A stretch of DNA of 64,000 nucleotides from Microbotryum violaceum (GCA_001244265.2 CDLV01000018.1:186001-250000); one strand, 5' to 3'; shown: positions 7,554 through 31,062, numbered from the stretch's first letter. The notes: generated from the letters alone by a model not told the origin. Made by a program: numbers and translations.

Positions 7554-7609
7554 GCCCGGGTCGCCGCCCAAGCCGGCGGCGCTAGCCGAGCCCGTAGGCG
7601 GTTCCGCTC
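7554..7609 (+). repeat. GC-rich dispersed direct repeat, copy 1 (copy 2 at 14666..14718)
   Basis: GCCCGGGTCGCCGCCCAAG (19 bp) and GCGCTAGCCGAGCCCGTAGGCGGTTCCGCTC (31 bp) are identical in both copies. Confidence 0.9.
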
Positions 7610-7748
7610 TTCCTCTAATTGCTCAACCGAAGAAAGACTACTTGGTCCTAAGCTCAACTAAGCCCTCCCTCTGGGAGGGGCTTAGGACTTATCGGCGCGC
7701 CTGGCCCAGTTGCCCTCCGAAATTTCAGGGCCAATTTGGGGTGGTTCT

Positions 7749-10700
7749 CTGTAGCGTGGCAAGTACTTACAATTATCCAAAACGCAGAGATGTTATAGAT
7801 CTTCTACTAGAAAAAATGGCCTGTGCCGAACGACAAGAGGATACCCCATCTGTAGGCGAAGCTATAATGATCTGAAGTATGCAAACTTGGTCAATTTGGT
7901 CCCAAGTGGTCCGTGCGGCAGCACGCTGCTGCAGCCGCCGGCTTGCGCACTTCGGCGTGTGCGCATCGGTTTCTCTCCCGTCCCATCCCGCATCACTTGT
8001 CTTCTCGTTACTATGCTCTTCGCTTGTTCTCGGTGCAACACCGCGCTTATCTCAGAATGACGCGGAAGCGCAGACGCTATGACTCGACGACTCGCCAGGA
8101 TCGCCGCCGTCAAGCGGATCTATTCGCTCGGTTTCGGCTTCATAAGCTCTCACAATGTCAATACCTCTCGTGATATTTCAGCCCATCAACACAACACAGC
8201 GGTGTTTATAATCATAGGACAAAGCTCTTCAACAGTAATTGGACCCAGCTCAAGCATGTACTTGATCTCATCATACAACTCGCCCGCGAAGATGGCCCAG
8301 ACGCACGAGGCCGAATCAATAATTGGATTGCCAACCAGGTGGGTAACCCTCCAGCATATCAGATCAGGATACAAGACCGCGGCAAGGCCTCTTAAACACT
8401 TGCATCATACCTGTACAATCTGACTCAATCATTGTGAAAGAGATGAAACGAACCAGATCCGCCTTCGTCTCCAGCCACGACATGGCTCCTGAAGTCTTTG
8501 CATCTGATCAGATTGACGCACGCCTCGACGCAATAGTCGAAAGCAACTCTTTCATCAGTGGACGCATCCGCAACCTCCTGTCTCACTGTGGAGACCCACC
8601 ACCAGTCGAAGAATCAAACTGCGACAACCTCATCTCGGATTCTACGGACGTTGACATGGAGGACGCTCAAGAGGATAGCTCTGGTTCGGATGCAGAACGG
8701 GGGCGTTTCAAGGAGCATCATGTATCATTTGTGCGTAGTTATGGCCTGAGCTTAGCCCCTTGGTCAAAGTCACATTGATGAAGGCGTTTATTGACTTGCC
8801 GCAGTTTTGTCGCTCGATAATGGGTCAGATCGCCTTCGCGTGTAACCGATGAAACAATGCTATGCAGCATCGTAACGGTCTCATGGCTCTCGCACGTGGA
8901 GCGAACGATCGGTTGACGACGTTCCTGTACGACTGTGGCCTCACGACCTCTCGCCGTACAACTCGACGAGCAGCTTTGAGCCTGACAATGGCCAATTTGG
9001 CGTTGCTGAAGGAGATCGGGTCAACCCGCTACTTCCATGTCACTCTTGACAACATCGACGTTGCACATCACGTCAATGACGAACAACCTGATCGACGTTC
9101 CGAGCTGCTTCATGGGACTTTATGATTTGCGCACGTTCAGAATGGAGACGTGGCCAAAGCGTACGACCTTCAAGCATACATTGCGCATCAAGCGTTGTTA
9201 CCTCCGGTCGATGTAAACCTTTTCTTGCCCGCTGAAGCGTCTGAGGAGGCCTTCGCCACAGGGTTTTCCGCCCAGATGTATCGAGCGCTTGCCCGACTGG
9301 TTCCTCATCTCGGCCTCACGCTTCACGATCCTCGGTGCAGACCAGAGCCAATCGAACAACTGGAAGTCCGAAAACCCGACATTACTTTGCTTCAGATGAT
9401 GGACGAATCCGATACATCCACCGCAGATGTAGCAAAAGTCATCGACCGTCTGCGGATGCAACTCGGACTCTCGGAGAAAGAATACGCGGACTCTCTACGG
9501 ACACTCGAATGTGATGGCGGGACCTCAATGCTTGTCGAGTCACTTCGTAGGAACCGCTTTCCGTTTCGACGACTGTACGATGGACTAGGGACTACAATTA
9601 CAGTTCCAGGCGTGGCTCATTTGCAGTGATGCATTGGGGCAGCAATCTACCGACGATACTTTGGGGATCCGTTGGAAGGATCGAAATATCGAGGGTCGCT
9701 TTTCATCACCGCTAATCTACTTGGCCGCAAAGGACTGGACCCCCAAAAAATCAAGGACTACAACCAGATGGAAAGGCTGCTTCGAGACACCGCTCAACTG
9801 GAGCTGTTGAGCCGTCTTCTGTGAGTGATATGGTCCCAAACTATGCACATAAAGCCAAGGGCAAAATGATGTTATGCGCTGCTAACGGCTCGTTCTGTTA
9901 TGCATGCAGACAAGAACTTGGCCTCAAATCAATTGACGAGCTCAGACAAACCCACCTCACTGGACTCGATGTCGCGATCATGAGGGTCTTCGATCGATAC
10001 TTGCACTCTGACGTTGTGCAGCGAGCAAAGGTGAACATGGAAAAGGCTCCCGTGTTCTATTAATCGCTCCTTCGGCTGCGCGACTTGGTCGATTTCGAGG
10101 AAGGGTATTACGCCACTTTGCAAGGAGACATTGGTCGACTCATACATTGTTGAGAGCGCATGTCTCCCTTCCTCCAGGCCGCTGAAGGCGTTCCCACTAC
10201 CGAGCGCATCTGCTACAATTACTCCTTCCTATCAAGTCCTCGCCAAAGTGGTCGACCAAGAGGAGTCTGAGCTTCTTGCGTAACTCAATCGGGTCAACTC
10301 GATCTTCTTGAGTCAATTGTGATCTCCAGTGAGCAGCCCGAGAGCAAGGGGTAGGCAGCTCGGGGGTTGTGTTGGTTAATTGATGGTCCCTCGAGGTCGT
10401 TGGCTTTGCCCTCGAAGCTGATCGTAAAGGCGACTCTCTGAACTCAATCGATGGAGACCGACGAGGTGTGCCCTTGACAGGTGTTGGCGTTTGTACGGGC
10501 ATGGTGGATCATGAGGGCGGTAGCGACGTCGTGGACTGGCGTTGTGGACCGAAGGTGAGACCGGTGAGGCCCGGCTGGCTGATTCACGTCGGCGCGAAGA
10601 ACCGTCCCTCTGGGTCCGTGCGCGAGCCAGCTCCAAGACGAAAATAACGACTTCTCACCGCTGTAGCTCAATGAATAGGAGTTGCAAGAGTCTTCCCTTG

Positions 10701-10780
10701 GAGTATATGCTCGAAAAAATAGCATAAGAGTAACCCTTTTGCAACGATTGTATAGGTTGTTTTTATTTGCCATGCTACAG
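7749..10780 (+). mobile_element. Putative ~3.0 kb TIR DNA transposon carrying a DUF6589-like gene
   Basis: CTGTAGCGTGGCAAGTA (7749..7765) matches the reverse complement of 10764..10780, CTGTAGCATGGCAAATA, at 15/17, with weaker similarity further in. No exact TSD seen. Confidence 0.6.
8434..10500 (+). pseudogene. DUF6589-like putative transposase pseudogene
   Basis: Motifs NNAMQHRNGL...GLTTSRRT...TLDNIDV.HHV...LLHGT and QMMDESD...ECDGGT...PGVAHLQ are typical of DUF6589-type proteins of rust/smut-group fungi. In-frame stops at 8850, 9123, 9627, 10061 and 10151; intron ~9821..9909. Ends are approximate. Confidence 0.65.
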
Positions 10781-10810
10781 CAAGGTGGTACTTTTCTGGG
10801 CCAAATTTCG

Positions 10811-13497
10811 TTTTTTTTTTTTTTTTTTTTTTTTTTGACTGGGGCTCATAAATTGCTATCCTTCGGGTTGGCTGGGACCGCTACAAAAAGAGCTAAAGGA
10901 GGTTATAAAGCAACGACGGCAAGCAGTTGGGTGAAAGTCAAACCCCTGCGCGCAAAGAGCGCTGCGCAGTTCAAAGCCCGCCGAGCACCTAACGCGGACT
11001 CCAACGGACGGTGAGTACTGCTGCCGCTTCACGTCCCAAGAGCGGGAGCGAAGATACTCGAAAACCAGGCAAGAGCGCCTAGAGAAAGAAGGGGGAGAGT
11101 ATACAGAAAGTCACGACTGGGTAAACGGAGAACCAGGAATATTAAGACAGAGAGGAGGGGAACACACCCGAGGGGCCAAGGGAGGGGGTCGAAGCCGGAG
11201 GTAGAGGTCCCCAGGGACTAACAGGCCGCAGCCAAGCCCCAGCTACTCGTCACCCCGACAGCGCCTGATGTCCTCCCTTGGCTGAATCTCGAGTGCTGGC
11301 TGCTGAGCCGTCGGGGCCGAGTGAAAAGCGATCCAGTACAACGAAACGAGCCTCGCCTTGACGCGAGGATATTGACCGGAAACGAGCGACCTTCCTTCCC
11401 GAGCCATGCCGTAGATCTTGACCAACGCGAACGAACGAACCATTCAACGGAATCCAACACACGGCTTAGGAGTAAAAGGGGAAGTGGCTGAAGCGTAGTC
11501 AACAACCGAGCAACAGGAACGGGAAGAGGAAGGGAAGGGAAAAAGGGGGGAAAGGAGAGGGGAAAACTTCGCAAAGCCTCCAACGCAAAGACGATCGACC
11601 CGGCTTGCCGATCCATCCAAGAACGAAAACCGCGACTGCGCAAAGTAGAAAGGGAGGGAGAGGTGCGCAGCCTTCCACTGCGCAACAAGTTTCAAGACAG
11701 TCAGCTTCTGAAAGAGAAGTCGACCTCCGAAAAAGAAGGGAGGAAAGGAGGGGAGGAAAACTGGGAAGGAAGGACTTAACTCGGTCATCACACCTCCCAA
11801 TCTCGAGCCCCAGGCACAAAGCCCACTCGAGAGAGAAAATCTCGCTCGAACGCTCTGAGTGCACTGGGGAGCGAGGGAGGGGCCACGACCTTGTCCAGCT
11901 CGAACCGCTGATGAACGCGCCAGCGGAGCAGGTGCAGCCGCTGGAAGCCGATCGCGCAAGCCAGCCGAACCCACATCCATTTCGAGGTCGTTCTCCCACG
12001 ACCCCGCAAAAGGGGGAGCCCCATAGTCAGCTGCTCCGGAGTGAACGTCGACGGATCGACGTCGGTATCCTCGATGCCAAGCTTGTCGAACAGAATGCGA
12101 AGCACCCCGCCCCAGAAGCTGGTCGAGTACGCGCACTCGAAAAAGTAGTGCGACACTGTCTCGATGACGGCTGCATCGTTGCCGCAGAACAGACACGTCG
12201 GCGAAGAGGCATGACCCTGAGTATGCTGCCTCTTGCGCGTCGGCGTCACGTCGTATATGAGCCGCCAGTGGGTGTCCTGCTTCACAGCAGACGTGAACCG
12301 GTCATGAAGCCATCTCCAGAAGCGCTTCCTATCGCTTTGAGAAGTCCCATCACGGAAACGCTTGATACGATCCTCCCTCCCTGGGAACCGAACCACGTTC
12401 ACAAGCCGACGAAGCTTGCGAATAGTGAACGGTCGGGTGAGCCCAAAGAAGATGAAGCATCGAGGACGGGGAGCCTCCTTGAGAGGTATCCGAGCAGGTC
12501 GCAACGCGGTCTTGGGCAGCAAGGCTTTCGCCTTGAGCAACTGACCCACGCGCGACCACACGTGCTCGTGCTGTAGGGCGGGTTCCTTAGAGTGCTGCCA
12601 GAACCCGCGTCGATGACCAACCAGAGCCCAGCCCTTCCCTTCATCCCTCCAGTACAGGTCCACGATCTGCGCAAACTTCCCCACTGCGTCCGCATCGTCA
12701 TATGCGTGCTTGGCACCTTCAGCATAGAGTGAAGGGAGGGGGGGGGGCGAGGCGGAAGCGAGAGCAATTCGGAGAGCGTAAGGAGTTCGGACTTGATGGT
12801 TGGAACTGTGACGCTGGCCGCTGCAACGACTGCCCCCCAGCGCGTCGAGTCGCGATACAGCTTCTCGAGCCGAGCCGTGCTGCTGAAGAACCGCCACGGA
12901 CTGAAATCGCGGGTCGCAGCGACGAGGGACCTCCAGCTCTCGCGAGCTAGAGGCGCCCAGATCGCCTCGTTCGAGCCCGCCACAGCATCCCAAAATCGAA
13001 GCGCCACCGAATGAACGATTTCGCCGATCGAAATCAAGCCCAAGCCACCGTCCTCCCGAGCCTGGAACACGAAATCGCGAGCGACGGTATTTCGCCCTGC
13101 TCCTCCCCAGACAAGATCCGTAAGTGCTGTCTCCGCCGCCTTAATGAATCATTGAGGCGGTATGTCGAAGGACAGCACGTGGAGGACCATCGAGATGATG
13201 TGAGCGTTGGTATAGAAGACCTTCCCACTCGGCGAAAGTGTCCGGTCTCCAGCGGCGCGGGTCTTGGCTTTGATCCTGTCAAGAACATGGGTCCAAAACA
13301 GTTTCGAGTCACCGAAAGGCATCGCCGCACCACTTGAAGCTCTCCCCCTCCTGCACTGTTGGCAGCGCCTGCGCAGTCTCGTCCCGAAGCCAGTTCGGTC
13401 CGAGTGGTAGCACCAGCGTCTTGTCCGTGTTGGTCTTCCCGTTGGTTGCCTATAGGCAAATCAGCCAGAGCGCGGGGCGACAAAGTAGGGACCTCTT
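10811..13497 (-). mobile_element. 5'-truncated non-LTR retrotransposon (L1/Tx1-type), ORF2 C-terminal half plus long 3' UTR
   Basis: LSPSGKVFYTN, VFQAREDGGLGLI and the zf-RVT motif CLFCGNDAAVIETVSHYFFEC, with frameshifts and stops. A T26 tract at 10811..10836 may be the poly(A) tail; the 3' boundary is uncertain (10811-10915). Confidence 0.85.
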
Positions 13498-13499
13498 GT

Positions 13500-14400
13500 A
13501 AAGAGACAAAGAAATTGTTTAAGCATGTATATTTATGTTAACAAGCTATTGAGCGTTACATATGAGAACTAATGTCAATTTTTTCATCTTTTGTCTTTTT
13601 GGTCCTGCTTGGCTCTGCCAAGCTGGACAAAAAGGACCAGCTTCGCTGGGCGCTTGTACGGTTCTAGGAGGTACAATTCTTAATTGTGATGCTTCATACC
13701 CATGACAGATTGGGTTCCAAGATGGTGCTACGGTATTGTAGAATTACATGATACTATTTTTTTCTGTAGGAAACCGAAAGAGTATTCACTCGCTAAATAA
13801 TAACTAGTACTCAGTTTATTCTTTTTATAACTAGGAACAACAACTAGGCTAAACATACAGAATAATAATTATTCGCCCCCTTTTGTTTTTAGCTTTTCCT
13901 TTTCCTTTTTGTCGCGCCCCTCGCCCAGCGGGGCTGGGCGCTTGATTCCTGTTTTTTTTTTTTGCTCTTTTTTTTATAGTTTTTGTCCAGCTTGGCCTGC
14001 TTCATTTTTCAGATATAGCGGTGGTTCGATTCCTCCTAGTCCTATTTACCTGCTCTTCCCTTTTCCTTGCCTTTTTTATGTTTGCTTTTTTTTTTAGTTT
14101 TTTTAACTAAAAGGCATAAAAAGGCGCCCAGCCCCGCTTTTTTCTAAAAAGGGGCAAGTGAAAAAAGAAAAAAAAAACCTGAGGATAGATAAGTCAGGAC
14201 CCTAGTGTCTAAGTTATTTTTAGTAGCTCCATTAAATAGATCAGGCCAGAAGTTCTTTTCCCTACAGCCTGTTTCTGATTTTCTTTGTTAATCTTTGCCC
14301 TACAGTTTTTTTTTTGTCTCGCGCGCTTTGTCCTTTTTCTTTTTATTTTTGTCTTTTTTCCTTTTTTTTTATCTCTCTTTTTTGTCGCGCGGATAAGGCC
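13500..14400. other. AT/T-tract-rich degenerate sequence, probable decayed TE
   Basis: Sharp drop in GC with many poly-T runs interspersed with GC-rich GCGCCCCAGCCC-like motifs. No recognisable ORF. Confidence 0.4.
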
Positions 14401-14665
14401 CAAGCGCCCAAGCCCCTCCACGCCCGCGGCGCCCGCCTACTGATCCCAGACCGCCGCCGCTGATACGTGCATCGGCCGAGCAGGGGACGACCAGGGAGGT
14501 GCGAGGTCGGGGTACATCGATTTGTACCACATCCAGGACGTACATCCAAGATCTGGAGTGCCAAATTTTCCGATTTGTATCACTTTTGAGTCGCAGTTTA
14601 GGGTTCGGAGGGTCCGATTTGTACATTTTCGGGCACGCACATTGGGCTGAGCTTTCCCGTGTCCT

Positions 14666-14718
14666 GCCCGGGTCGCCGCCCAAGTCAGCGCTAGCCGAGC
14701 CCGTAGGCGGTTCCGCTC
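14666..14718 (+). repeat. GC-rich dispersed direct repeat, copy 2
   Basis: Matches 7554..7609 except for the central TCA versus CCGGCG. Confidence 0.9.
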
Positions 14719-16009
14719 CCTTCCGCGAGTCTGTCTCTTAGTCTCCGGCCGCTCTATTCTCGTCCCTGTTCATTGGACTGAGTCGTGGTCATCATCAGAT
14801 TCCACATGAGAACATTTTTGCGACACCTCGCGCCAGCCATCTGCCGCCATCCAGTGCCGCGCCTCGCGCGCACCTACTCCCAAACTCCACAAGTCCCTCT
14901 GGACCGCTGACCCTTTACATAGTTCCCACAATGCTTTTCTCAGTGGTTGCCGTGGATGGTGCGTCTCGTGCATGTTTGTGAGATGAAATAAGGTACCTGT
15001 GTGAGCTCGATTCAAGCAATTCAGACTGTCAAAAGCAAGAAAATGGAGACTTCTTTGTGCGTCACGAAAATGGTATTGCTTGCCCTCGCTCAAAACCCCC
15101 CGAATTGACTGCGCTGATATTTCGGCGAGCGGCCTTCTTTCCACTAGAGCCGCGCGAATGGGAGGGTTCCCCGAGATTCTCTTTCATGAGATGCAATATC
15201 GATCGAACATCAAAAAGAATCGCCCGTGATCTGGCGCTCGGTCGAGCTCGGCGAAAGGAGACGAATGAAGGCGGCCAAGGTGAGAACGACGGGGTGTAAA
15301 GAGTCAAGTATTTCGCCATGGTACAATTCGTGGGCAAGGGATGTTATTGGAGCCTACACAAGAAGGTGGAATAGATGCTGCAAGATTTGCCTGCGTTTCC
15401 ACCGCCGGACCTCGACGAAATTCAAAGTCCGAGCGGGGTACACTGGACCTCGACCCTTTTGCTGCCGGCATTCGAGGCTGGGGGCGTTGGGGGCGCCGGC
15501 TCGATTGGGACATCATCCACCTCGTTTCCGCTCTCGAACATCTGCCGCTGTTTCCATCATCCAAAACACGAACACAGACTCGACAAGAACCTTTGCCCAA
15601 TCTAAACGAGTACAACAAGTTCCATTGGGTATGTTGCATCTCATTCCATGTCCAGCGCGATCTCCGAGTCCGAGGCCATCACCCATCGTCGCACCAGCCT
15701 GGTGCCGTCACTGGCGCCGCTCCGGACGAGTGGGGTGGGGATCTTTTAATCAGCCCAGTGTGCTGATGCCCATTCTTTCTTGTTCACTGCTCCTTCCAGC
15801 GACATTCCTCATTACGTATCTCTCGTCGTCGTCTCCGGTCTTATTGCGTTACCATGGGAATCAACAACGGTCCGTCGTTCTTGCGCCAATCGATCGCAAG
15901 GAGCCACAGAGCCTGGTGGGCACGGCGACCAATCCAGCTCGACTCCTGCCGGCCATCGAGGGTGACGAACTAAAAGGTAGGCACTGGACTCTTGCTGCAC
16001 CGAGTGATT

Positions 16010-18233
16010 TCAATCGGAACGTCCAGGAAGCTTACCTTCTTATTTATTTGATAGACTTCATTAACAGCATAATTATATTAATACCCAGAAATCTTCGGAA
16101 AAGTCGGAGGGAATGCTGTTACGCACACTGGCAGAAGCCAGTAGTGTAAGACTCATTGACCCTGAACCAGGATCAACCATACCCACTAAAACCCCCTTTG
16201 GTGTCTTACAGAGACACTAGGCGACCCTTGGACTCCTGGATAGAGGCTCAAAGCCCCTCGAACTCCGTTTCGGTGATCGGTTCCAAAAGATCCGACGAGA
16301 ATCGACGACGGCGACACAGCTTCCAGATCGAGTGAAAGAAGAGGACTCGTAGTTCGACAAGTCGACGTTCCGAGCGAGACACGACCGGGCATACAAAGTC
16401 CACAAAGACTGGGTGGGGGGTCGGGGACAGAGCAGACCAGAGGCGCCGGGCAAATGGGCAGCCGACCGCGAGGTGAACCAGGCACTCGGGTGCTTCCGAG
16501 AGGCACATCACACAGGAGGTAGATCTATTGTTGGGATGTGGGCTGGTTGGGGAGGCGACTTGGCTTCCCGGATGGAGGGACCCCAGGGAGAGAAGGTGGC
16601 CGGTATCCTCGGCGTCCGAGTGAACCCGGCGAACCTTGCGCAAAGCCTTCCGCCAAGCGTTCCAGCGTTGCTCAGGCAGATCGAATACCTTCTGGTGTCC
16701 CTTGGGGAAGATAGGGGGGAGGATGAAGACTTGGTGGCGTTTGGACGCGTTCACAAACGAAGACGGGGTCATCACCTCGCCATCGGGCCCTCGAAAAAGC
16801 CTCGGGTTTACCGAGAGTTGTATTCCGTGGCCCGTTGGGAAATAGAGTACGTGCGTTGCCCATTGCTCGAGGTTCTGGCTCTTGGAGAGTTCCGGGGGAT
16901 TGAGCGTGGTCACCAACGCCCGGGCTTCGAAGTATCGGACCCAACGAGCAGGAAGAAGTTTTGTCGTTTTTCTCACCGCATGGTCCCACTTTGGGGGAGG
17001 ATGGCAAAAGTATGCCCACCAGATCCAAATCCAAGGGCAACGATGCTGGTTGGGGCCGGTCTGGACAAGGTGAAAGGGGTTGGTTCGTTTGGTGCCTGGA
17101 GGCGGATGCGGATGTCGAAGAGGTGGCGTGTGAAGCAGCCGTCCGGGGCCCGTAGCTGGAAGACCCACTTCGCGTGATCGATTGCTAGACGCCGAGGCAG
17201 ATCAATCAAACCGAAGCCACCGTGATCGAGAGGGGTGCAGAGGCGCGACCGGGAGACCTTCGGACGTCGCTGAGTACCATCCGAAGCTCGACCGTGAATG
17301 GCGAGCATGGCGGCCTCCTCGATCTCCTTGACAACGCTCTTGGGGGCGGGAAGGAATCGGCTGTAGTACAAGATCTTTGTGTAGCAGTAGATGTTGATGA
17401 TCGAACACTTGGCTGCATATGGGAGATCGTACATCGGAACTGAGCGTATCCGAGCGATGGTCGAGGCCTTGACATCTTCCCAGCCCGCATCCTCGGCGAT
17501 CTCTATTAGAACCTAAAGCCGAGGCACGAGATACGTTTAGTACGAGAGCCGAGGATGATAGTAAAGACAGTTGGAGAAAGAAGAGAAGCGCAGAGTAGGA
17601 GCGCGCGAGGCAAGCAATAGCCGCGCGAGGCGACTAATATCAACAACTAGTAACTAATCGTGATCGGTAATAGAAGTGGGATGAAACAGCAATATACACT
17701 TTGACAATCTCCACCCCGACCTGAATACCAAGGTAGCGAAACTGCGAATCGCTGAGACGCCAGGTCCCGAGATCTGGGGCGATCGACCGATCCCGAAAAG
17801 CTCCAAGGGGGTAGAGAAAAGATTTGACGTTGCTGAGCTTGCTGGCACTTTCCCGTTCGTAAAGCTCGATCGCCCGATTGAGGTGGTCGAGGTCCGAGAG
17901 GTTGTGGAGTGCGCAGCAAGCGTCGTCGGCAAAAAGGAGTTCGCGAACGTTTTGGAGGCCCGCAATATCGATGCCCTTGACTCTCAATCGAATCTGACAG
18001 GCAAAACCTTCGATCGCCAGGACGAAGAGAGACGGAGCCAAAGGATCACCTTGCCGAACGCCCGACAGGATGTCGAAAGTGGCAGAGAGCCAACCGTTGA
18101 GGAAGATCGAGGCAGATTGGTTGGTGTAGGTCGCTCGGTACCATTGGCGGGCTTTAGGGCCGAGGCCAACGGCGCAGAGGACTGCATCAAGGTACGGGTG
18201 GGAAAGACGATCGTAAGCCTTTTCAAAGTCCAT
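16010..18233 (-). mobile_element. 5'-truncated L1/Tx1-type LINE inserted in intron 1 of the PIN-Fanzor gene
   Basis: RT motifs DFEKAYD, GVRQGDPLAP, LFADD, RYLGI; LCTPLDHGGFGLID; zf-RVT CVMCLSEAPECLVHLAVGC. The 3' end is approximate. Confidence 0.9.
17504..17706 (-). mobile_element. Solo LTR (203 bp) inserted in the LINE RT coding region
   Basis: 5-bp TSD ATCTC at 17499..17503 and 17707..17711; termini TA(TG mutated)...CA. Removal restores the frame GVEI-AEDAGWEDVK. Confidence 0.85.
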
Positions 18234-21200
18234 CACTTTTGCGCCTCATTTGGTTGCTTTTGCCGCTGCTCTCAGCTCTGGTCATCGATGCGTCGACCGC
18301 CCTTTGAGACGTATGGACCGCGCGGGTTGGCATCAAGCAGCGCGGTCGTTCGTTCATCGACAGCGTAGTAAATATGTTGGAACCCCTCAAGAAAAAAGAT
18401 CCATCACTCCAGATCTTTGTCATTTTGGACAATTCAGAATGGCGACCGCAGCTCAAGAAGAGAACTATCGATGCCGGCGCCGACTCTTCCACGAGCACAC
18501 CCAACAACGTCAACGTCCGCTTCAACGCCTTTCGCTCGAATCCAATCTGTTTGTCGTCGGACCAAGCTCAAATGCGCCAATCATTTCTACCCAAACCTTC
18601 AACGCCGAGTGAAAATCGGGACGAGTTGCACATCTGGAAACTTGGGTCAGGAATCACATTTGTGATTACTCGAACCGAAGCCGACACTTTCGTTTTCGCA
18701 TCGGCTCGACGAGGCCACCTCGTCGATGTTACAATCGACGCCCACACCACGATACTCTGGTCCGGTGATACGGACTGGCTTTACGGCCTCCCCGCACGCT
18801 TCTGCCGATGGCGTATCTACGAGGAGCGAACACCCCGGAGCCTCGCCGAAGAGCTAGCCAATGTCTCGCTCGATGCCCTGGTCGTGGATGACGCGAACAT
18901 CACCCGCGCCGATGCTCCTAGGACGACAAGAAGTATTCTTATACTCGTCGACGTTTCGGAACTGAAGCAGTGGGGTAACGACAAGGAACCGGTCGTGGCG
19001 GGGATCGTTGCCGGTGGGGATTATTTGAACGGAGGGCTACCGGGCATCGGACTTCCACGAGCCTTCGAGAAGTACGGATTCTGCCTCTCGTTCCAATTCT
19101 GGCAAGCGGACATCACGAGCATCCACGAGGCCTTCGGAGACTACCTCAAGAACAGATCGTCAAGAACCAAGCGCGTCGAGGGGCTGGAACGTGCTCGGAA
19201 CGAGATGGGCAAGATCTACACGCTTGTGACGAACGATGTCGGCGATCGATTCGACCGACTCAAGGCACAGAAGGCATCTCCCACCACACGCAACATCCCC
19301 CTCCGTGGCTTCAGGACCCCTTGGGGCGCACCCCTTTCCAGAGCGACGACGTTTCCACCTCAAGCTCCGGTTACACCCCCGCAGAGGACTCGACCCTTGT
19401 TCTCCACCACCTCCGCAACCCCACCCGCCAGCTGGCTGCTTTCTCCACCCCCGATACCCCTAGCACCCACTCTCGCCGCCTTGACGACCGTCGTCACCGC
19501 TTCGGGTGTCATCGCCGGACCTGCCACTCTCGCTGCACCTCCACTTCCCTCCGCGCAGCCACCCTCCCTCGCAGCGGCCAAGCTCTTCCTCAAGCAGCCC
19601 CGCAAGAAGATGACTACGCTGCGTTCGCAAGCATGTCAGGCTTTGGGCGCGCGCCCTGACCTTCGCAAGGAGTACCTCAAGGTGGTCACGAAGGTGAGGC
19701 ACTGCCGGGAGAAGCTGGGCGCCCAAGTCGCTCGAGTACGAAATCCTCTGTACCGATCCGTCATGGGATACCATGCATGGAGGTACATCGACACCACGAG
19801 GATGGAGGCCGGTCCGTTGCTCAATCGAAGCAAGTTCAAGCCGGGAGGCGAGCGAAGACTGCAGCGACCCGCACCTCCTGTGTTGGATTCGTCGAGTGAT
19901 CGTGATCTCGATGTCGACGATCACGATCTCGGCTCGGAGGATCGGGCTTCGGGCATGGGCTGCGGCACCTCGGACGAGGCGGCACCTTGGACGAGGAGGA
20001 GGAGGAGGATGATGGCGAGGATGATGATGATGATGATGGGCAAGAGGACGAGTTCGGAGAGGATGAGTACGGGGAAGACGAGTACGGGGAGGATGAAATC
20101 GGGGAGAATGAGGTCGACGAGGGGAGCCAAAGCCAGATCCCGTCACTGCTCCTCATGACGACGAATTTCAGGACGGCAGCGAAGACGAGGACGAGGGCGA
20201 GGGAGGGAGTCGACAAGGTCAAGGCACGCCGGCGAACAAGGAGTATCATGCTCCTGTTCGACGCCGAGGGTTGCGGGAACTCGTCGTCCGTGTCGAGCGG
20301 CGAAAGCGCCGATTCGATGTCACCAGACTCGAACATGTGCCGGGCATAGGTGGCGAGAACGTAATCTCCTCGGTCTTTCCAGTTAAGGAGATGCGTCGCA
20401 TAGCGCTGGGCCACGTTTTGGTAGTATGCCGAGTCGAGCTTGTAGCGCAGGAGGAAGACTCCTTTCTCTCGAAGTTCCTTGACGGCTGAGGCCAGCAACC
20501 CTGAAGCCTACATCACAGCCGCAAAATAAGTGATTCCGAGTCGACGAGTCAGCTCCTCCATCTTGAAGTTGGCGGATCTCTCTCTCTGAACTCGAAGACT
20601 AGTCGACTCATCGCGTTGTACAGGAGAGAACCATCATCATTGGCCGCTCCCTCGAACTGTTCGACGTGCCGACCATACTCCGTCGGGGTCATCGTTGCGA
20701 GATCGACCGACACGTTTGCTGTGAGCTGCGCCTGCTTCTTCGAGACATGAGATAACAAGAGCGAATCATAGGGCTGGAGCGCATGGATAACGGCACGCAT
20801 CCTTGTTACCAGAGCCGAGTCGTTCGACGCGATTTCGTGCCAGTCGCGTTGAGTCCATCCATTGAGGTAGTCCAGCAAGACTGCATTCACGACTTTGAAC
20901 TCGAGCTCTCGCGCGAGCGTTTGTAGTCGCATAAGCGAGGAGAAAACGTCCTTGAACCGAGTATTGTTCTCGTCCGGTTGGTCGGGTGATAGGGGCAGAA
21001 GAATCTCGCGCACGCTCACCGCGCTCTCGGAGGTCCCTCCCTGGCGCTCCCATCGAGCGGACCTCGAGGCGTTGTTGGCCGCGATCGCCAAATATCAGTC
21101 TGATCCCGACCACGAACACCTCCGCGCGGTCATGCGAGCGTGCTTGCAAGAGGCATGTGGCGCACGGGACCAGCGAATGCGGTGGGCCTTTGGGCGCGAT

Positions 21201-24019
21201 CAAGCCACCGCCACTCGTCTGGTCGGCGCCAAGCTCTCCGATTTTGGGCCCGGCGGCAAGCTCAAAAACCCGATCGCGCTCCTTCCCGTCTACCACCATC
21301 TTCTCCTCGAATCCGGACATGGCAGGGGCATCGTACCGGTGAGTCCGACACTCGACAGCTGGCACTCTGTCACCCCAGCCAGTGTAGCGATCGAATGCTG
21401 ACCTTGACTGCGTTGGGGAATCTGTTTGATGTTCGGACAGACCGAGGGCAAACGCCCTTTTGTGAACTGTTCGCCGGGGTATCTCGGCGCGATCCTCACG
21501 TACCCCGTCTCGCTCGACTGGTTGAACAAGCTTCTTGCTGCGTCTGTCGTCAATGACGTATCGAAGCCCGCGGGTAACGCCGCAAGTCCGACTCACTTCC
21601 CCGTCCTTCGAGCGTTGCTAGGAAGAGGGTTCGACCAGATCTTCACCACCTCTAAGGACGGGAAGACGATGCACGTCAAACCGGAGTGGGCTCGTGACGC
21701 AGTGGCCGGCGTCAAGGCGCTGCAGCACCTCTGTTTCGGCCGATCCGTGGCTGGCTCGGACCCGTCGACCCCAACCGTCCCACCCGAGCTGTCCGAGGAG
21801 AGGCTTCTCGAGTCGGACGCGTTCGCTGCCTTTGGTGCTCGCCTCGTCGACATCCTCTTCGACACAGACAGGATTCTCGACAAGGACGAAATACCGGCGG
21901 GGTCGTTCACAGCGAATGGACACCGAGTTCGTCTATGAGTCTTGAACGTGTCGAGCGTGGCATCAACAGAGCGTGACAAGTCCTGGTACAACAATCCCGA
22001 CGTCTCGATCGGCTCCGCGCTCGACCGAACGGTGGCCAAAGCCCGGCTGTGGCTCCGCTTCCAAAAAAAAAGGCAAGAAGGACTCGCGAATTGCCAAACA
22101 CGACTACGAACACTACGTTAATGGCATCAAGAAGCCGTTCCGTTTATCGTATGCTCGACCGGGATCCGCCGAGAAGCCGAGCCGAATTGACGAGTTGGAA
22201 CGCAAACTCCGAGAACGCGCTGTGGCGGCAGCTCCCAACCCTTTCGATCCGAGCGCCAAGCTCTCATTGAGCGCGAAGCTGTACGATTCGAACGCGTGTC
22301 CTGGAAGCGATTCCGAGATGTACCCATCGTCGACGGTCGCATCTGCATCCCGTCGCTCCACAACCCCGAGGCACGTCGAGCGGTATTGGGAAGGCTCCAA
22401 GAGCACTCGAACAAGAATTTTGGCACCCAGATGAGTCGAGTTTGCTCCCATGTTCCGTGCGTCGGACGGAAGTCGGCAGGGTAGCATTTTGGCTGACGAA
22501 TTCGCCTTTGTCCGTCGTCGATTGGGATGTGTTTGATTCCGCAGCACGCCGTAGCCATGGAGGACCTCATTGCGGTGTTTGAACAACGTGGCGACCTCTT
22601 CCGTGACCTCTGGCGTGCTTTCGAGGATTCGATCGTCATTTCGATCGATCTCGGTCACCCTCGGCCGGTCACTGCTGTCGCTCGTGTTTTCACGCACGAC
22701 GAGACGGCGGCCTTCGAGACGTTCTGGTTCGGCAAAGAGGGGCTTGGAGCTATCGCAGCGGAAGGCAATCGCAAAGATGCCCGTCAACGCGCGAACAAGA
22801 CCCATCGTATCAACGAGGCCTTGCGTGCCAACAAGCTCGAGTGGTCCCCGCTTGCGGCAAAACTTGGGTTTCCCCTTCGACACACGCACGACGCGATTTC
22901 GGTTTCAAGTACGCAACAAGAGGCGAATCTCACGATTATGTACCAACAAGCCGAACAAATGGCCAAAGTGTTTGGTCTCGAGTGCATGGGTGAGTCTGCG
23001 CTGGTAAAGTTTCTCCTTGCAATCCAAGAAAATCGGCTCGGGTGCTCGAGCTGGGTGGAGTCTGCTGACACCTACGCTATACGACACCTGGCAGCCGCGG
23101 CTCGTCGACCCAACCACCTCGTTCCATCTCCACCGACCCATCCCGAGACAGCCACCTACAATCACCTACTCTCAAAGAGCTCGCGACCCGCCTTCCTCAT
23201 AGTCGGCAATGGGTTCACAAGCCCTGGTCCCAATCCGTCGAGCGTCTCCTACGCCCAGAGTTGCATCAAGATCATCTTTCGCTGCCTGCAGGCGCTTGGA
23301 CTGGAGAGCATGTACTTCTGTACCGTCAGCGAGTATTTGACGTCCAAGCTCTGCTGGCATTCGGACTGTAGGGACACGGACGAAACGCGGAACTGGTGAG
23401 TCTGCCATGATTGAGACCTCTTGATCACTTGCCGGGTCTTTTCTACCGCGTTCGGCCCTCAGCTCGGGTCACTGACACTCGCGCCGTGTTGTGATTGGCC
23501 TCCGCAGGGTCGGTCTTGGCCAAAAATCGAACGGGTGCCGGCCCCATAGGATCTTATGCTCGAACGCATTCAGGCAGTTTCCCGCTCCCATGATGTCTCG
23601 GTCGGCAGGCATGTGGACGCAGGTCCCACCGCCTAGGGCAATGCGGAAACAGGTGGATCCGGTCGGCTCCCGCCGCTGTGCAAGCATCGCAGGACCAGCA
23701 GTAAAGTCTTCAATGGGGAGTATATGATACAGTAATAATTAGCTTGTAATGTTTTGTGAAAGAGTAAGAGATAGAACCGCGCCAGTCGTGGCCTCCGGAG
23801 ACTCAAGTTTGTGGAGAATCTCGTGATTCCGCCACTCAATAGAAGACCTTCCTTCGACCAAGTCCACAAGAGAAACAAGTTGGGCGAGGCTCGATGCATT
23901 GCCTCGCTATCGCACCTCACTGGCGCTGGTGCCTCCCTTCCACCTCGGGCAGGCATAAAAAGTAGCACGCACACATAACCGCTCTAATCGCTCGTCACTC
24001 TCGGCTCACATATGGTCGG

Positions 24020-24169
24020 CCTTTGGGCCCAAGTCGGAGGCAACTCTGGTCCCACATCGGAGGCGACTTTGGGATCACATCGGGTGCGGACGTCGACTTT
24101 GGGATCACATCGATCATATCCGAGGTCTTTCTTGTACCACGTTCGTGGGGACTTTGGTACCAAATAGTG
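24020..24169 (+). repeat. Subterminal repeat cluster and putative transposon right end
   Basis: CGACTTTGGGATCACATCG is exact at 24064..24082 and 24094..24112, with degenerate copies nearby. Palindrome TTTGGTACCAAA at 24153..24164 is followed by TAGTG (reverse complement CACTA) at 24165..24169. Confidence 0.55.
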
Positions 24170-24427
24170 TAGACGCCTGTATTTCTTACAATGTGTGATG
24201 TATCACTCTGGGAACAGTAGTTTGCATGTACAGGTCTATAGTACTGCTGGCCGGTGAGACAAGTGTCAAGGTTGAGGAAGTTGCTGAGCCGTAGGCAGCA
24301 GGCGATAGCGAGGATGACGGGACGAGGTGCGGGATTGATGCAGTTGTTCGTGTAAGACCAGAACAGAGGCCGAGGGGGCTGGAGGTTACTGGGGGAGTTG
24401 ACTATCCTTAAAATGCTTAAAACTATA

Positions 24428-24785
24428 CTAGGTTCGGTGGCGCGAATACCGTAATCGTCGACCCGCTGAAATGTGACGTACTTTGCTGCAACAGCTGCGG
24501 TACTGTTCAGTAACGGAAATCGAGCGGTTCAAGTCGGGAGAGGACCGGCGGGACGACGATCAAATGTAAAGAGCCTTCATTTCAGGACGTTTCTGACACC
24601 GTCCACATTCGTTGCTGGGACAACGCGACGTACAACTGGCCGTGAGAAAAGACGGGCTTCTCCAGACATACTCCTACCTGCGCGAGTGACTGGCCTTGCG
24701 ACTTGTTGATCGTCATAGCCATTGCGAGCCGAATCGGAAACTGCGTCCGCCGGTGCAGAGTGAACGGAAGCTCAGCTGATGACCC
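24428..24785 (-). mobile_element. Helitron 3' fragment (PIF1-like helicase C-terminus)
   Basis: [51 protein letters not shown]. Imperfect hairpin CGGT...ACCG followed by CTAG|T at 24431..24428 on the minus strand. Confidence 0.75.
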
Positions 24786-25163
24786 TGTCTTCGGCGTTGC
24801 GTACTCGTTCCAAAACGGTGACAGTTGTTCTTGAGCCGTCATCCCTTTCTGATCCGCAGGGAGGTATTTCGAATCCAAGAGGTCATGAAACAACGCCGCC
24901 AGTTCAATGACGGCAAGATCGACCGGCTCCGAGTCGGCCGTCTCGGAACGCTGTTCTTTCTCTCCCTTAATTTGATGCGTGGTGTTGATAGATCGAGCAA
25001 TAACCAATGCGTTTCTGACGACCCTTTGAACGTGGTGATAGTCGTGCGAGGGGTCGTATTGCGAGTGATGGGATTGGGCGAGTTGGCGAGCGGCGAGGAG
25101 GAGACACTCGTGAGCCTGTGGGCCTGGGAAGGAGCCCTTTGCAAGTCGACAAGTCGATGCCAT
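24786..25163 (-). pseudogene. N-terminal half of an HD-domain phosphohydrolase, fused in frame to the Helitron helicase fragment
   Basis: [20 protein letters not shown] and [15 protein letters not shown]. The C-terminal DADRLD half is absent. Confidence 0.75.
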
Positions 25164-25647
25164 GTCGATGTGGAGTATCGAGCAGTATCGAGAGGTATGC
25201 AAGATGCGGTTGTTACCTGATTACCTCAATGGATTAGTCAGACTATCATGTACAGTAGTGAAATTATTAATTAATTCCAAGTTCTTGTTAAAATATATTA
25301 CATTCTTGACAGTACTGAATAGCATGTTAACTATTCTAAATAGCCAATTATGACTAATTGGCGACTTTTTTGTTACATTTATTCGCTCAGATTTCTGAGC
25401 GCTTATTAGCATTTTATCTCTAATCATCTTTGTTTTCCCGCTTTTATTCAAAGAATGAAGCGCCCAAGTTCCTTAGGCGAGTCGGGCTAAATCATCAAGA
25501 TAATTCCAGCAAAAGTAAGGTACTTTGCGAACGGAGTTGCCCGAATGTCAAACCGCGAGGTGCACGCCGAGCTGACGCGTCTCGACGCGCGCCCGCTCTC
25601 ACTTTTGTTTCCTGACTGTTCGCACCCATACCACCCGTCTCTTCCAA

Positions 25648-26526
25648 ATGGCCTCACCGGGCAGCAGTCGAAGGGAATCGACGACGTCATTGATGCGACA
25701 ACGGACGCCGTTCTTGGCTCAGTCGGATGAGGTGGCCGGGGATGAGGACACGAGGGAGATCATTCTGGATGATCAAGGTGAGTGATGCAGCGGGTGCGGT
25801 GTACTGGTTCGGGCGGAAAGGGGCTCGGGGATGGTGCTCCACATCGAGCCTGGGCAGAGCGGCGAAAGGTATCAAGGGTGGTCTCTCAGAGGTCTCCTAC
25901 TGCCTCTCGATGCAGAAGAGATCACTCCGAGCTCTATGTTGATGCTCTTTCATCTTTGCCACAGAACAAGAAGGTCTCGTACAGGACCTGTCAAAGTCGC
26001 TGGACCACTCGGCGCTGATCTGGTCCCGTCTCGTCGCGGCCTTGCTGGCCATATCTGCCAGGCGAGTTGGCATCAACTCCGACACTCATAGCTGCAGTTC
26101 GAAACTGAATTCTTCTTCCATCCCTTGCACAGCGTCCCATTGATTCTCCCCTGTCCTACGCGGTCCTTCCTGCTCGCCCTCCTCATCCGGCTCTGCACCA
26201 TCGCCCCCCTTGCATTCCTCTCCTTCCTCCTCCTAGGCACAGAACACAACCCGTCCACATCCTCGGACCTACTACCGCCATCCCCAACATACACCACCTC
26301 TGCGTCATCCTCACCCCCAACCCCCAAATTCCAACTCCCCCTCCTGCACACACTCCTCCTGCTTCCTCCGTTGTTCATCTCCCTCTTCACCTTGAGGACC
26401 GATTGGAGATGGTCTACACCACTTTTGATAATGGGCTTGGCGGTTGAAGTGTCGAGAACTATCAAGGCTCAGCAGGATGAGTTGATGGGGTTGCAGAAAC
26501 TCAAATATCGGTTCGATGGGGCCTGA
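25648..26526 (+). CDS. Uncharacterised fungal membrane protein (3 exons)
   Basis: MASPGSS...IILDDQ / EQEGLVQDL...LLAISA / hydrophobic segments ending LQKLKYRFDGA-stop. GT-AG intron, then a GC-AG intron at 26062. Confidence 0.65.
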
Positions 26527-26818
26527 TGCGTGCGAGCCTCAGTGCCGTGCCAGTGGGAAGAGTGGTAGGAGGGGAGATGGGAGAAGAAAGTGTGCATTTT
26601 GTTGTCTCACTACATCGAACCTGTTGAACTCGAACTCGATCTCGGTCGAGCTGCGACTCTGGCAGGCGCGCTCGGCGTCCATCACGGTGTTTCCCGGCGC
26701 ATCTGGGGAGGCGAGGGTCCGTGCGCGTTTCGCCGCGGCTGCGAAGCCAACTTTGAACCACTCGATCGCTCACTTCCGTACTCGGCCTCCTCGAGAGCCA
26801 CCTTTACCTCTACCCACA

Positions 26819-29167
26819 ATGCCTCTCCTACCACCCGACCAACAACCCCATAGACCCTCCCCCGTCCCCGCCACCGAAGCCCGCATCGATTCCGTCGCAG
26901 CCGACTCCTCCGAGCATGTGACTTCGATCGCCTTAACCGACGAAGGAACCCCTCTAGAGCCCCTGGACATCGTACTAGACCAAGACGAACCCGTCGAAGA
27001 ATCAGACGACTACAATGAAGAAGAGTACGATGACGACGATGAGGATTGGGATCTGGAGACCGAGTTGGACAGTGGGATCAATCAGGTAATGGATCAGGAT
27101 TGGGCTGATGCGAGTGGGGGTACGTCAACTTTGTCGTAGAAGCAAACGGTGTCGGGGAATTTTCTTTCTCTCCCACTGATGAACGAACATTTTCGACTGG
27201 ACAGATTTTACCAAGCGGTACAATCGGTTGAAGCAACATGTGGTCGCGAGCTCGGCATCGAACAAGGCTACAGGAGCGACTTCCTCTGCTGGTGGGAGTA
27301 GTATGACCTCCAACATCCTCCCCGCCATCAACAGGCCGAAGCGGGTGACCTCTTCCTCGGCCACCTCAAGTGGGACCCCCGGCGTGCATACCGATAAAGT
27401 TTCGGACCAACTCGCGACCCTCAATCATCGATTCGCTTCCAAACTCGATCTAGACCCAATCCTCAACCGTTCCGCGAACGTAGGCGTGACCCGAAAAGGA
27501 GGAAGTGAGAAAGTTTTGGTCAAGGATAAGAGCGACCGAGCTACGAACGAACAGGTATTGGATCCGAGGACGAGGTTGATCTTGTTCAAGATGTTGGGGA
27601 GGGGGTTAATTGAGCGGGTCGATGGGTGTGTCTCGACGGGCAAGGAGGCGAATGTTTATCATGCGGTTTCTCCGGCTGCGGGAATGAGGGAGGAGGGAAA
27701 GGATGGAGAGGTACAAAAGGAGGCAGAGGAGGAAAAGGGCGAAGGATCGGTTCGATTTGCCGAAGAGACTTCCGCCGCCGTCACCACGACGACGACGACG
27801 ACGACGACGACGCTGCCTCCCAACACCCCACGTCACTTGGCGCTTAAGATCTACAAAACCTCGATCCTCATCTTCAAAGATCGCGACCGTTACGTATCCG
27901 GCGAATTCCGTTTCAAATCCGGCTACGCGCGAAGCAACCCCCGCAAGATGGTTCGGCTCTGGGCAGAGAAGGAGATGAGGAATTTGAGGCGGATGAAGAA
28001 TGCGGGCCTGAATGTGCCGGAACCTATCGAGGTGAGGGAGAACGTGTTGGTGATGGAGTTCATGGGCGTTCAAGAGGGGGAGGATGAATGGCAGTGAGTT
28101 CGCGTAAAGCTCTGGTTTGGGTACAGAGGGTGACCGCGTCCGATCTGATGGCTCTTTTCACCAAACCCAGGGCATCCCCCCGTCTCAAAGATGCCGATAT
28201 CCCATTTTCGGCCCTCCCCGATCTTTACCTCGACACGCTCGTAATCCTTCGCATCCTCTTCCAAAAATGCAAACTCGTCCACGCCGATTTCTCCGAATAC
28301 AACGTCCTCTACCATCGTTCCCAATTGGTCATCATCGATGTCTCCCAATCCGTTGAACAAGATCATCCTTCGGCTTTTGATTTCCTTCGATCGGATTTGA
28401 AGAACGTGGAGGAGTTTTATGGACGAAAGGGGGTAGGAACGACTTTAGGTCTGAGGGGAAGTTTCGGGTTCGTGACGAGGAGTTTTGAGGGGGTCGGTGA
28501 GGAGACGGAGGAAGGGATGAGGGAAGAGGCGAGGAGGTTATTGAGCGTTCGGGAGGGTCAGTTGAAGAGGGAGGAAGAGGAGGAGAGTACGACGAGGGCG
28601 AATGATCCGACCTCGTTCGATGCGCTCAAGTTGAAAAAAACAAATCAACCAACCACCTCATCACCATTGGCCTCCACATCTACCTCCAATAGAGCATCGA
28701 GCCAGAAATCAAGTCAAGTCGACGAAGCCGTCTTCGCGCAATCCTTCATCCCTCGAGCACTGGATCAAGTGTACGATATCGAACGGGATGTGGCGAGGGT
28801 GTTGAGAGGCGAAGGGGATGATTTGATCTATGCGGATCTCACGGGGGTGGCGAGGATTAGGGAGAAGGAGAAGAAGAAGGCTGCGGACGCGGAGGGGGGT
28901 CAAGGGGTTGAGGGTCGGGAAGGTGGGGAAGGGGATGGGAGTGGGAGTGCCTCGGAGCATTCGAATACCGACGGGGACAGTGATGATGATGAGGACGAGG
29001 AGGAAGATGAAGGCACTTTTCGACCCAAGGGTAAGAAATTCGAGGACAAGGATGAGAAGAAGAAGCGAAGAGCCGAAGTCAAAGCTGCGAATCGGGACAA
29101 GAGGAGTCAGAAGATGAAAAAATCGGAGAAGGCGAGGAAGGTGAGGAAGACGTCGGGGAAGAAGTAA
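26819..29167 (+). CDS. RIO1: RIO1 atypical Ser/Thr kinase
   Basis: KDKSDRATNEQVLDPRTRLIL, STGKEANVYHA, FKDRDRYVSGEFRF, WAEKEMRNL, LVHADFSEYN, IIDVSQSVE, and a basic C-terminal tail. Confidence 0.96.
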
Positions 29168-30747: not shown

Positions 30748-31062
30748 CTTGTGCTCGGATGACTCACATGCGCGGTGAGCTGGCCAGGGATGAGATGACT
30801 TTCCAGAGTGTGGAGGGTGGGAGAGAGGAGAGAGGACAAGCACGTGATCAGATCAGGTCACGTGTTCGGTCCCTGCCGGCATTTTCTATAGAAATCGGGT
30901 CAATTAGCTAGCGCTGATCAGCGCGCGGTCTATTATAATCAACCCGGTCCGTCCGGCTCGGCTCGACTGCCAGCTGGACTGGACCTGGCTCCTTCCTGGC
31001 TCAGCTCGCCCCACCTCACTCCGCCCCTCACGGCAATACCGGTCACCTCCGACTCGAAGCGC

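Follow-up and report, generated by a model that had tools for sequence, protein, structure and literature searches.

A decayed Microbotryum violaceum gene that likely joined a FEN1/XPG-like nuclease to a Fanzor-like RuvC nuclease

We analysed a 64,000-nucleotide stretch of one strand of the Microbotryum violaceum genome (GCA_001244265.2 CDLV01000018.1:186001-250000), hereafter called the window. Sequence comparison indicates that positions 15854-23704 of the window are a decayed pseudogene copy of a gene in which a FEN1-like part was fused to a Fanzor-like part. We consider it likely that the intact form of this gene encodes one intron-bearing protein of ~1700 amino acids (aa), consisting of a FEN1/XPG-type 5' nuclease, a low-complexity linker and a TnpB/Fanzor-type split RuvC domain with a zinc ribbon; both domain assignments would be remote homologies. 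An earlier annotation made from the sequence of the window alone (the sequence-only reading) had proposed a PIN-Fanzor fusion of ~1,800 aa, now a pseudogene, that ended at 23806. The fusion within one protein was recovered, given that a 1718-aa gene model of Microbotryum saponariae (P0001) carries both predicted halves and the window is collinear with it, and the pseudogene status was confirmed by the lesions described below. The end of the gene, however, is at 23704, and an ancestral length of ~1700 aa replaces the longer estimate.

The gene family was delineated by querying 5.8 billion protein clusters, in a word-indexed search, with the 616-codon open reading frame (ORF) at 18308-20158. The sole protein found that is longer than this query was P0001, which shares 64% identity with it across the first 340 residues, and tblastn placed P0001 collinearly along 15854-23704. 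When P0001 was itself used as query, the only protein of similar length that matched was P0001. Overall, the family members found are one long protein (P0001) and nine shorter models, all from Microbotryum. Among the shorter ones, P0003 is recorded as the protein of the window itself. P0004 and P0008, both on one 176,597-bp contig labelled M. lychnidis-dioicae p1A1 Lamole, are read as pieces of the window locus. Among the searches made, the family was seen only in Microbotryum, with few copies per genome that are mostly broken, and no second copy of the gene was found inside the window. The ORFs at 15.8-23.8 kb matched no Pfam family above threshold except for a minus-strand reverse transcriptase at 17640-18245 (RVT_1, E 9.2e-15). 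The domain alignments A2 and A3 were used for the family; P0005 was excluded from A3, its tail being an inverted, out-of-frame read-through. Since the 1718-aa P0001 is collinear with all the motifs listed in Table 1, this motif set lies far beyond chance.

The DNA confirmed the reading of the first exon: it has an ATG at 15854 and the donor GTAGGC at 15977, and joining to the acceptor AG at 18274-18275 yields ELK/ALVIDAS in phase, as had been proposed. The same proposal had taken MGINNGPSFL and IEGDELK as one frame, but the two lie in different frames, a 1-bp deletion near 15897-15899 having shifted the frame in exon 1 (seen both by tblastn and in the DNA). A short intron is retained by the model P0006 at the position of intron 1. 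Three further segments that start with GTGAGT and end with AG are absent from P0001 or from P0008/P0009, namely 21339-21440, 22990-23094 and 23396-23507. A fourth intron (22431-22544) begins with ATGAGT in the window copy, and a putative intron of ~90 nt is located at 20508-20596 within inverted segment 1; ATGAGT is thereby found at two putative donors (22431-22436 and the minus strand near 20596), against GTGAGT in the other introns. Moreover, a 688-nt contig of run X20, ~96% identical to the window, skips 22428-22541 and 22989-23093 (GT..AG) together, and the DNA run X2 shows neither skip. This contig is consistent with a spliced transcript from a related copy, where X20, like X15 and X16, is only guessed to be an RNA run. 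Given that P0001 retains a 105-nt intron in frame, the actual protein is probably shorter than P0001 by 35 residues.

We interpret the N-terminal half of P0001 as a FEN1/XPG-type nuclease that has diverged yet kept a complete catalytic set. For comparison, 13 viral proteins were fetched with a FEN1 motif that is independent of P0001; XPG_I was matched by 13/13 of them and XPG_N by 12/13. P0001 is identical to this set at 13 of its 16 invariant XPG columns (M1, D46, K102, R109, E176, A177, C182, A183, D206, D208, G288, D290 and Y291), a number to be compared with a maximum of 8 among shuffled sequences (n=239). The three remaining columns are changed from P to R, from E to D (conservative) and from A to T. 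We take the K102 and R109 columns to be those of K93 and R100 in human FEN1. Using hhalign, aa 1-310 of P0001 were placed on positions 1-261 of the viral XPG alignment, from Met1 to the helix-three-turn-helix (H3TH) motif, with VILDN aligned to VFDG. At the H3TH motif, GGDYLSGGLPGIG was aligned to GTDYNPGGIKGIG of archaeal FEN-1 (1b43, 1a76), and a profile of four family members compared with the PDB gave two matches in all, both to archaeal FEN-1 at this motif (E 1.1-1.3). The acidic active-site set and H3TH motif that the sequence-only reading had recognized are borne out by these comparisons. Among the language-model neighbours of aa 1-390 (Atlas), Pox_G5 clusters came top (0.93), and XPG_I/XPG_N clusters (0.92) made up 17/30. 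A scan of viral contigs with the H3TH motif gave 38 loci, none of them FEN1-like.

The C-terminal half was compared with the long motif of TnpB and Fanzor proteins, which is given in the available portion of Bao and Jurka (2013, PMC3627910) as D-X(125,275)-[TS][TS]-X-X-[C4 zinc finger]-X(5,50)-RD. The corresponding residues of P0001 are D1402...T1633 S1634 K L C1637x4C1642...C1663x9C1673...R1680 D1681, and they match the long motif only with a relaxed finger spacing (C.{2,4}C / C.{2,9}C). This relaxed form is found in 25/43 viral Fanzor-like ORFs, in 1/1688 background ORFs and in 18/100,000 composition-matched shuffles. According to the section of PMC10711439 on the alternative glutamate, the RuvC-II Glu may be located six residues before the first finger Cys. 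P0001 fits this rule, with E1630 six residues before C1637 and D1679 five residues after C1673. At the canonical RuvC-II site, where Fanzors have Pro or Gly in the passage of PMC10530073 that describes it, P0001 reads FLVVGNG, 47 residues upstream, with Gly in place of Glu. P0001, P0002 and P0009 all retain the catalytic D-E-D together with the zinc ligands. For the TnpB/Fanzor signature claimed for this region, the relaxed long motif and the alternative Glu speak in favour, and the strict CxxC spacing has no match. A further motif of the sequence-only reading, RLYCWSC, is an antisense reading of the tail (minus strand, 23709-23689) and is absent from P0001.

To compare the family with viral Fanzors, viral contigs were scanned with EYxTSKxCxxCG, which gave 58 loci; 23 long ORFs were aligned and 23/23 match PF07282. 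At the invariant columns of this set outside the selecting motif, P0001 is identical in 6/6 (D, G, C, C, R, D), a count reached by 1/232 shuffles. By hhalign, the family matched the viral Fanzor set with E 2e-4 and a probability of 47% over 65 columns, the set having been chosen by the shared motif. With a single sequence the score was 35.0, compared to a shuffle mean of 13.4 (standard deviation (sd) 2.5), and none of 119 shuffles reached it. A hidden Markov model (HMM) of the viral Fanzors scored 5/5 family members at 6.8-12.9 bits, above all 500 shuffles (maximum 4.6 bits). Moreover, the top language-model neighbours of aa 1330-1718 (Atlas, 0.95-0.96) are clusters that carry Cas12f1-like_TNB/DUF8286 and derive from giant viruses, green algae and Mucoromycota. 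As side observations on the viral loci (L001-L058), ~43 of the 58 carry long Fanzor-like ORFs of 200-812 aa, many of them on giant-virus contigs, and the same 32-35-aa ORF (LEFVAKSFEYFTSKVCFTCGVNVFT) occurs at 14 of the 58.

Several results weigh against these two assignments. For the N-terminal half, the hhalign match is weak (probability 1.3-1.7%, with E 0.03 at 1.7%) and its score was reached by 2/126 shuffles. XPG_N (PF00752) and XPG_I (PF00867) were matched neither by the window ORF (E up to 1) nor by P0001, which gave no match to any Pfam family at E up to 10, and phmmer of P0001 against PDB chains returned low-complexity noise alone. For the C-terminal half, PF07282 and PF01385 gave no match with the window ORFs (E up to 1) or with P0001 (E up to 10), nothing was found in NCBIfam or PHROGs, and the C-terminal profile had no match in the PDB. 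A phmmer search of ORF 22497-23399 against 1.8 billion representative proteins returned one match, a family member. The strict CxxC form of the long motif has no match, the spacing in P0001 being Cx4C...Cx9C, and the RuvC-I motif is ISIDLG (VDLG in P0002) rather than the Fanzor DPG; in the relevant part of PMC10711439, DPG is near-exclusive in Fanzors and D-hydrophobic-G is typical of TnpBs. It should be noted that the viral Fanzor set was chosen by a motif taken from a family protein, which makes the C-terminal match partly circular. When sub-HMMs free of that motif were used (RuvC-I, middle, RuvC-III), viral Fanzors did not rise above the 1688 background ORFs (0, 0 and 1 in the top 12), and pairwise BLAST and phmmer comparisons with the viral proteins stayed at E above 0.3. 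AlphaFold2 models of the N-terminal half and of aa 1101-1718 had a mean predicted local distance difference test (pLDDT) of 32.3 and 31.1, respectively, each from a shallow alignment of close relatives (4 and 6 rows for the two halves); models of such low confidence would give only meaningless matches in a fold comparison.

If only the FEN1-like homology were real, the C-terminal RuvC motifs would be a coincidence within a lineage-specific orphan domain that is not a Fanzor relative. The missing database and PDB matches of the C-terminus, the lack of Fanzor enrichment with the motif-free sub-HMMs, the pairwise E values, the low pLDDT, the DLG in place of DPG and the atypical finger spacing would all suit such a domain. 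We nevertheless regard it as quite unlikely, in view of the rarity of the long motif among composition-matched shuffles and background ORFs, the six independent invariant columns that all match, a C-terminal hhalign score 8.6 sd above the shuffles, and TNB-domain neighbours from typical Fanzor hosts at 0.95-0.96, a value expected for ~1 in 100 shuffled proteins by the tool's own figures. A putative Fanzor-like RuvC domain is the reading that we retain for this half.

Both halves are joined in one model, P0001, and also co-occur in P0010 and P0002, degenerate models from another chromosome of M. saponariae; in P0010, which derives from a deletion, the nuclease N-terminus is followed by the middle region. 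Intact homologues that always encode the two parts as separate genes, the case that would have spoken against a fusion, were not seen. The single polypeptide is argued from a predicted gene model and stop-free collinearity, and no transcript spanning both halves was seen in the run contigs; both points count against the fusion as we propose it. One could accordingly picture two nucleases encoded by separate neighbouring genes of one element, with the 1718-aa protein as an artefact of gene prediction through a low-complexity spacer. The linker is indeed Pro-rich and poly-acidic and aligns in the window in frames 2, 1 and 3, with the frame changes within acidic repeats at ~19979-20130, and all other annotated models are fragments with one half each. 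Yet in the window a single stop-free frame of 616 codons links the nuclease core to the Pro-rich part and extends as far as the acidic repeats (18308-20158, in a shifted frame after ~19980), and the high-scoring segment pairs (HSPs) across the linker contain no stop. Moreover, the order and orientation of the halves are the same in the window, P0001 and P0010, and neither a start codon nor a promoter-like gap separates them. We hold separate genes to be very unlikely, and a fused protein remains our preferred interpretation. None of the 23 viral Fanzor-like proteins has an XPG domain.

The window copy itself cannot work: it has the 1-bp deletion in exon 1, an inserted retrotransposon, two TGA codons, frameshifts and two inversions. 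The nonsense TGA codons are at 18305-18307 and 21936-21938, and P0001 has Arg at both; position 21936 is C in other copies and species, as seen by read comparison. Both in-frame TGA codons facing Arg in the homologue are compatible with a C-to-T change of CGA codons. Besides the frame changes in the linker, a frameshifted stretch is present at about 22100-22250.

The retrotransposon is a fragment of a long interspersed nuclear element (LINE) that lies in intron 1 at 16043-18236. An insertion at this place had been proposed, with bounds of 16010-18233 that our data revise. In addition to the RVT_1 match mentioned above, it contains zf-RVT at E 0.016, under its cut-off. Its depth in the DNA run X2 is 5,000-22,000, compared to 66-80 for single copy, and loose ends are found at 16043 and 18236. 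A second LINE-like ORF cluster (zf-RVT, E 7.6e-7) was observed upstream, at 11444-13148.

Both inversions of the sequence-only reading are present, within narrower limits. Inversion 1 (740 bp) extends over 20277-21016 and not over 20244-21094. Inversion 2 (about 125 bp), which had been given as 23411-23806, comprises only about 23530-23657, since 23396-23507 is an intron and 23658-23704 is a plus-strand tail. The joint 20276/21016, on opposite strands, was seen in contigs of runs X2, X15 and X20, and the joint 23529/23658 in run X20; un-inverted copies therefore exist for both inversions. Assembly error was considered as their origin and rejected, as inversion 2 recurs in P0005, a gene model of a sister species. 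We likewise rejected a separate gene on the opposite strand as the source of the minus-strand pieces, given that P0001, P0002 and P0009 read them in line and that the un-inverted joints occur elsewhere. At both inversions the junctions share a microhomology of 6-12 nt that can be read on either strand (20268-20279, 21010-21021, 23530-23535 and 23655-23660), which suggests that the inversions arose by template switching or end joining at microhomologies; it is unusual for one gene to carry two such events. The right junction of inversion 2 is within the palindrome GGATCC.

If the intact protein is built as we propose, it may cut and resect DNA. The N-terminal nuclease would bring the full metal-binding acidic set, a Lys/Arg pair at two invariant FEN1 columns and the H3TH motif for DNA binding. 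A low-complexity linker of ~330 aa would tether it to a part with a Fanzor-style active site, in which Gly takes the canonical RuvC-II position and the presumed catalytic Glu stands six residues before the first zinc-finger Cys. We hypothesize that the Fanzor-like part cuts double-stranded DNA, guided by an RNA that the element encodes, and that the tethered 5' nuclease would then trim the 5' strand or a displaced flap at the cut. The resulting 3' tails could steer repair to homologous recombination over end joining, and the element would thereby be retained or copied back into the cut site. That some Microbotryum species still carry a working fused cut-and-resect enzyme as a homing device for their own element is conceivable, though we find it doubtful.

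The surroundings of the window copy bear on this mechanism. A fold signal of a guide RNA was sought at 23658-23930, where the z-score was -0.09, and Rfam had no match in 13000-27000; these two results would speak against an RNA-guided element, and both come from a single copy that is dead and rearranged. A search for terminal repeats flanking the window copy found none, and no transposase was found near the gene. In run X2 the nuclease part has a depth of 1x and the remainder of the gene one of 2-4x, by which the family is low-copy and mostly broken. High-copy repeats flank the gene at 13500-15167 and 23925-24758, as judged by run depth, and housekeeping genes begin ~3 kb downstream. Taken together, the low copy number, the lack of terminal repeats, of a structured RNA downstream and of a nearby transposase, and the ordinary genes ~3 kb away would be expected of a real fusion that is now a domesticated or decaying host gene, one with no guide RNA, in which the RuvC part is only a DNA-binding or structural module. 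We judge this unlikely: each genome has several copies, most of them broken and scattered over different chromosomes, which resembles a family that is or once was mobile, the catalytic and zinc-binding residues are retained in three models, and the guide-RNA test was made on that one dead copy.

Some additional features were observed in the flanks. A degenerate, T-rich array of a 38-nt repeat (7 copies, 61-100% identity) is located upstream at 13880-14390, within the high-copy region. Directly downstream, an ORF on the minus strand (24582-25220) overlaps the high-copy repeat 23925-24758; its end matches the C-terminus of Pif1/Helitron-type helicases (PF02689, E 3.5e-5) and its front is HD-domain-like by eye, with no link to the gene shown. 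Fanzor1 genes carried by Helitrons are mentioned in the available portion of Bao and Jurka (PMC3627910).

Table 1. Parts of the fused gene in the window, alignment with P0001, motifs and downstream genes (window positions).
Feature	Position	Strand or frame	Basis or remark
Exon 1 (MGINNG...ELK), N-terminus of the putative FEN1/XPG-like domain	15854-15976	+	tblastn of P0001, sequence reading
Intron 1, donor GTAGGC, acceptor AG	15977-18275	+	105 nt if the inserted LINE is removed
Non-LTR (long terminal repeat) retrotransposon (LINE) fragment inside intron 1	16043-18236	-	RVT_1, read depth, loose ends
Putative FEN1/XPG-like 5' nuclease core, LVIDAS to H3TH motif GGDYLNGGLPGIG	18276-19100	+	tblastn, motifs
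Linker, low-complexity (Pro-rich, basic, acidic), P0001 aa about 320-715	19101-20276	+	tblastn, P0001 sequence
Inverted segment 1, codes P0001 aa 717 to about 931	20277-21016	-	minus-strand HSPs, un-inverted joint in contigs
Middle region, putative RuvC-I, RuvC-II, alternative Glu and first zinc-finger pair	21017-23395	+	tblastn, motifs
Last intron (GTGAGT...CAG)	23396-23507	+	P0001, P0002 and P0009 read RNW/VGLGQ across
Short exon piece (W)VGLGQKSNG	23508-23535	+	
Inverted segment 2, second zinc-finger pair STCFRIALGGGTCVH and putative RuvC-III (DRDIMGAGN...GRHPF)	23530-23657 (about)	-	
C-terminal tail RSAPAAVQASQDQQ and stop TAA (23702-23704)	23658-23704	+	
P0001 aa 1-20	15854-15913	frame 2	tblastn
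P0001 aa 16-41	15898-15975	frame 1	tblastn
P0001 aa 44-611	18281-19978	+	tblastn
P0001 aa 631-715	20038-20276	+	tblastn
P0001 aa 716-856	21019 to 20597	minus	tblastn
P0001 aa 852-942	20507 to 20235	minus	tblastn
P0001 aa 934-1651	20991-23396	+	tblastn
P0001 aa 1652-1666	23509-23553	+	tblastn
P0001 aa 1656-1703	23672 to 23529	minus	tblastn
P0001 aa 1703-1718	23654-23701	+	tblastn
Motif LVIDAS	18278-18295	+	
Motif ILDNSEW	18422-18442	+	
Motif RTEADT	18671-18688	+	
Motif SGDTDW	18761-18778	+	
H3TH motif GGDYLNGGLPGIG	19013-19051	+	
Motif GSFTANGHRVRL	21900-21935	+	
RuvC-I motif ISIDLG	22638-22655	+	
Canonical RuvC-II strand without Glu, FLIVGNG	23193-23213	+	
Alternative-Glu motif SEYLTSKLC	23328-23354	+	
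First zinc-finger pair CWHSDC	23352-23369	+	
RuvC-III motif DRDIMGAGN	23603-23577	minus	
RIO1 kinase	27183-29167	+	
PIG-M-like mannosyltransferase	29881-30852	-	
TRAPPC10 N-terminal domain	30892-31941	+	

Fanzors are described as eukaryotic RNA-guided DNA cutters, and the extras reported in the portions of the literature available to us are N-terminal, REC, RuvC and NUC extensions, a helix-turn-helix and nuclear-import signals. In the accessible text of Jiang et al. (2023, PMC10530073), Fanzors 'often contain various domains', and a supplementary figure of that paper on extra Fanzor domains may bear on priority; our literature searches, in which papers on Fanzor with FEN1 or PIN and on TnpB with XPG were judged by title, found no description of a natural fusion of Fanzor or TnpB with FEN1, XPG or PIN, nor any paper on a Fanzor in Basidiomycota or Microbotryum. 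If a working cut-and-resect enzyme does persist in some Microbotryum species, it would be the first case in nature of an RNA-guided nuclease that brings along a nuclease for processing the ends. A natural Fanzor bearing a 5' nuclease would show how a mobile element controls the repair of its own break in a eukaryotic nucleus, and it would provide a ready blueprint for editors biased toward recombination or toward defined deletions.

Among known systems, Fanzor1 of the Spizellomyces punctatus type shares with the Microbotryum protein the long motif, the Gly at the canonical site and the Glu placed six residues ahead of the finger; that Fanzor1 conserves a Gly and a Glu is noted in the available portion of Bao and Jurka (PMC3627910). 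It is likewise an intron-bearing eukaryotic gene of a dispersed multicopy family, with a large and variable N-terminal half. However, SPu-1-1p is 633 aa long in the same portion of PMC3627910, compared to ~1700 aa for the Microbotryum protein, which appears to add a FEN1/XPG-like nuclease via a disordered linker of ~330 aa. The latter also differs from Fanzor1 in its DLG at RuvC-I, its Cx4C/Cx9C finger and the lack of a Pfam TNB match, and the searches at the window copy revealed neither a guide RNA nor element ends nor a partner transposase. A split RuvC into which a zinc ribbon (TNB) is inserted would be common to it and to prokaryotic TnpB (IS200/IS605, IS607) and Cas12, and with TnpB it also shares the D-hydrophobic-G at RuvC-I, which is usual there in the relevant part of PMC10711439. 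In most TnpBs the canonical Glu lies ~50 residues ahead of the finger, a site taken by Gly in the Microbotryum protein; unlike TnpB and Cas12, its gene is eukaryotic, spliced and much larger.

The Rad2 family (FEN1, EXO1, XPG, GEN1) and poxvirus G5 share with the N-terminal half the MGI start and the IDAS, LDN, EAD, DTD and GDY motifs, as well as the invariant Lys/Arg and the H3TH GGDYxxGGxxGIG, in the order and spacing of that family. In contrast to Rad2 proteins, the Microbotryum sequence is below the Pfam thresholds of XPG_N and XPG_I, has Asn for Gly after the second Asp and one extra residue before the conserved Cys-Ala, and appears fused to another nuclease. Finally, engineered exonuclease-Cas fusions are man-made proteins in which an RNA-guided cutter and an end-processing nuclease are tethered to change the repair outcome. 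Compared to these, the Microbotryum protein would be natural, encoded by a single gene and equipped with a 5' flap/5'-3' nuclease.

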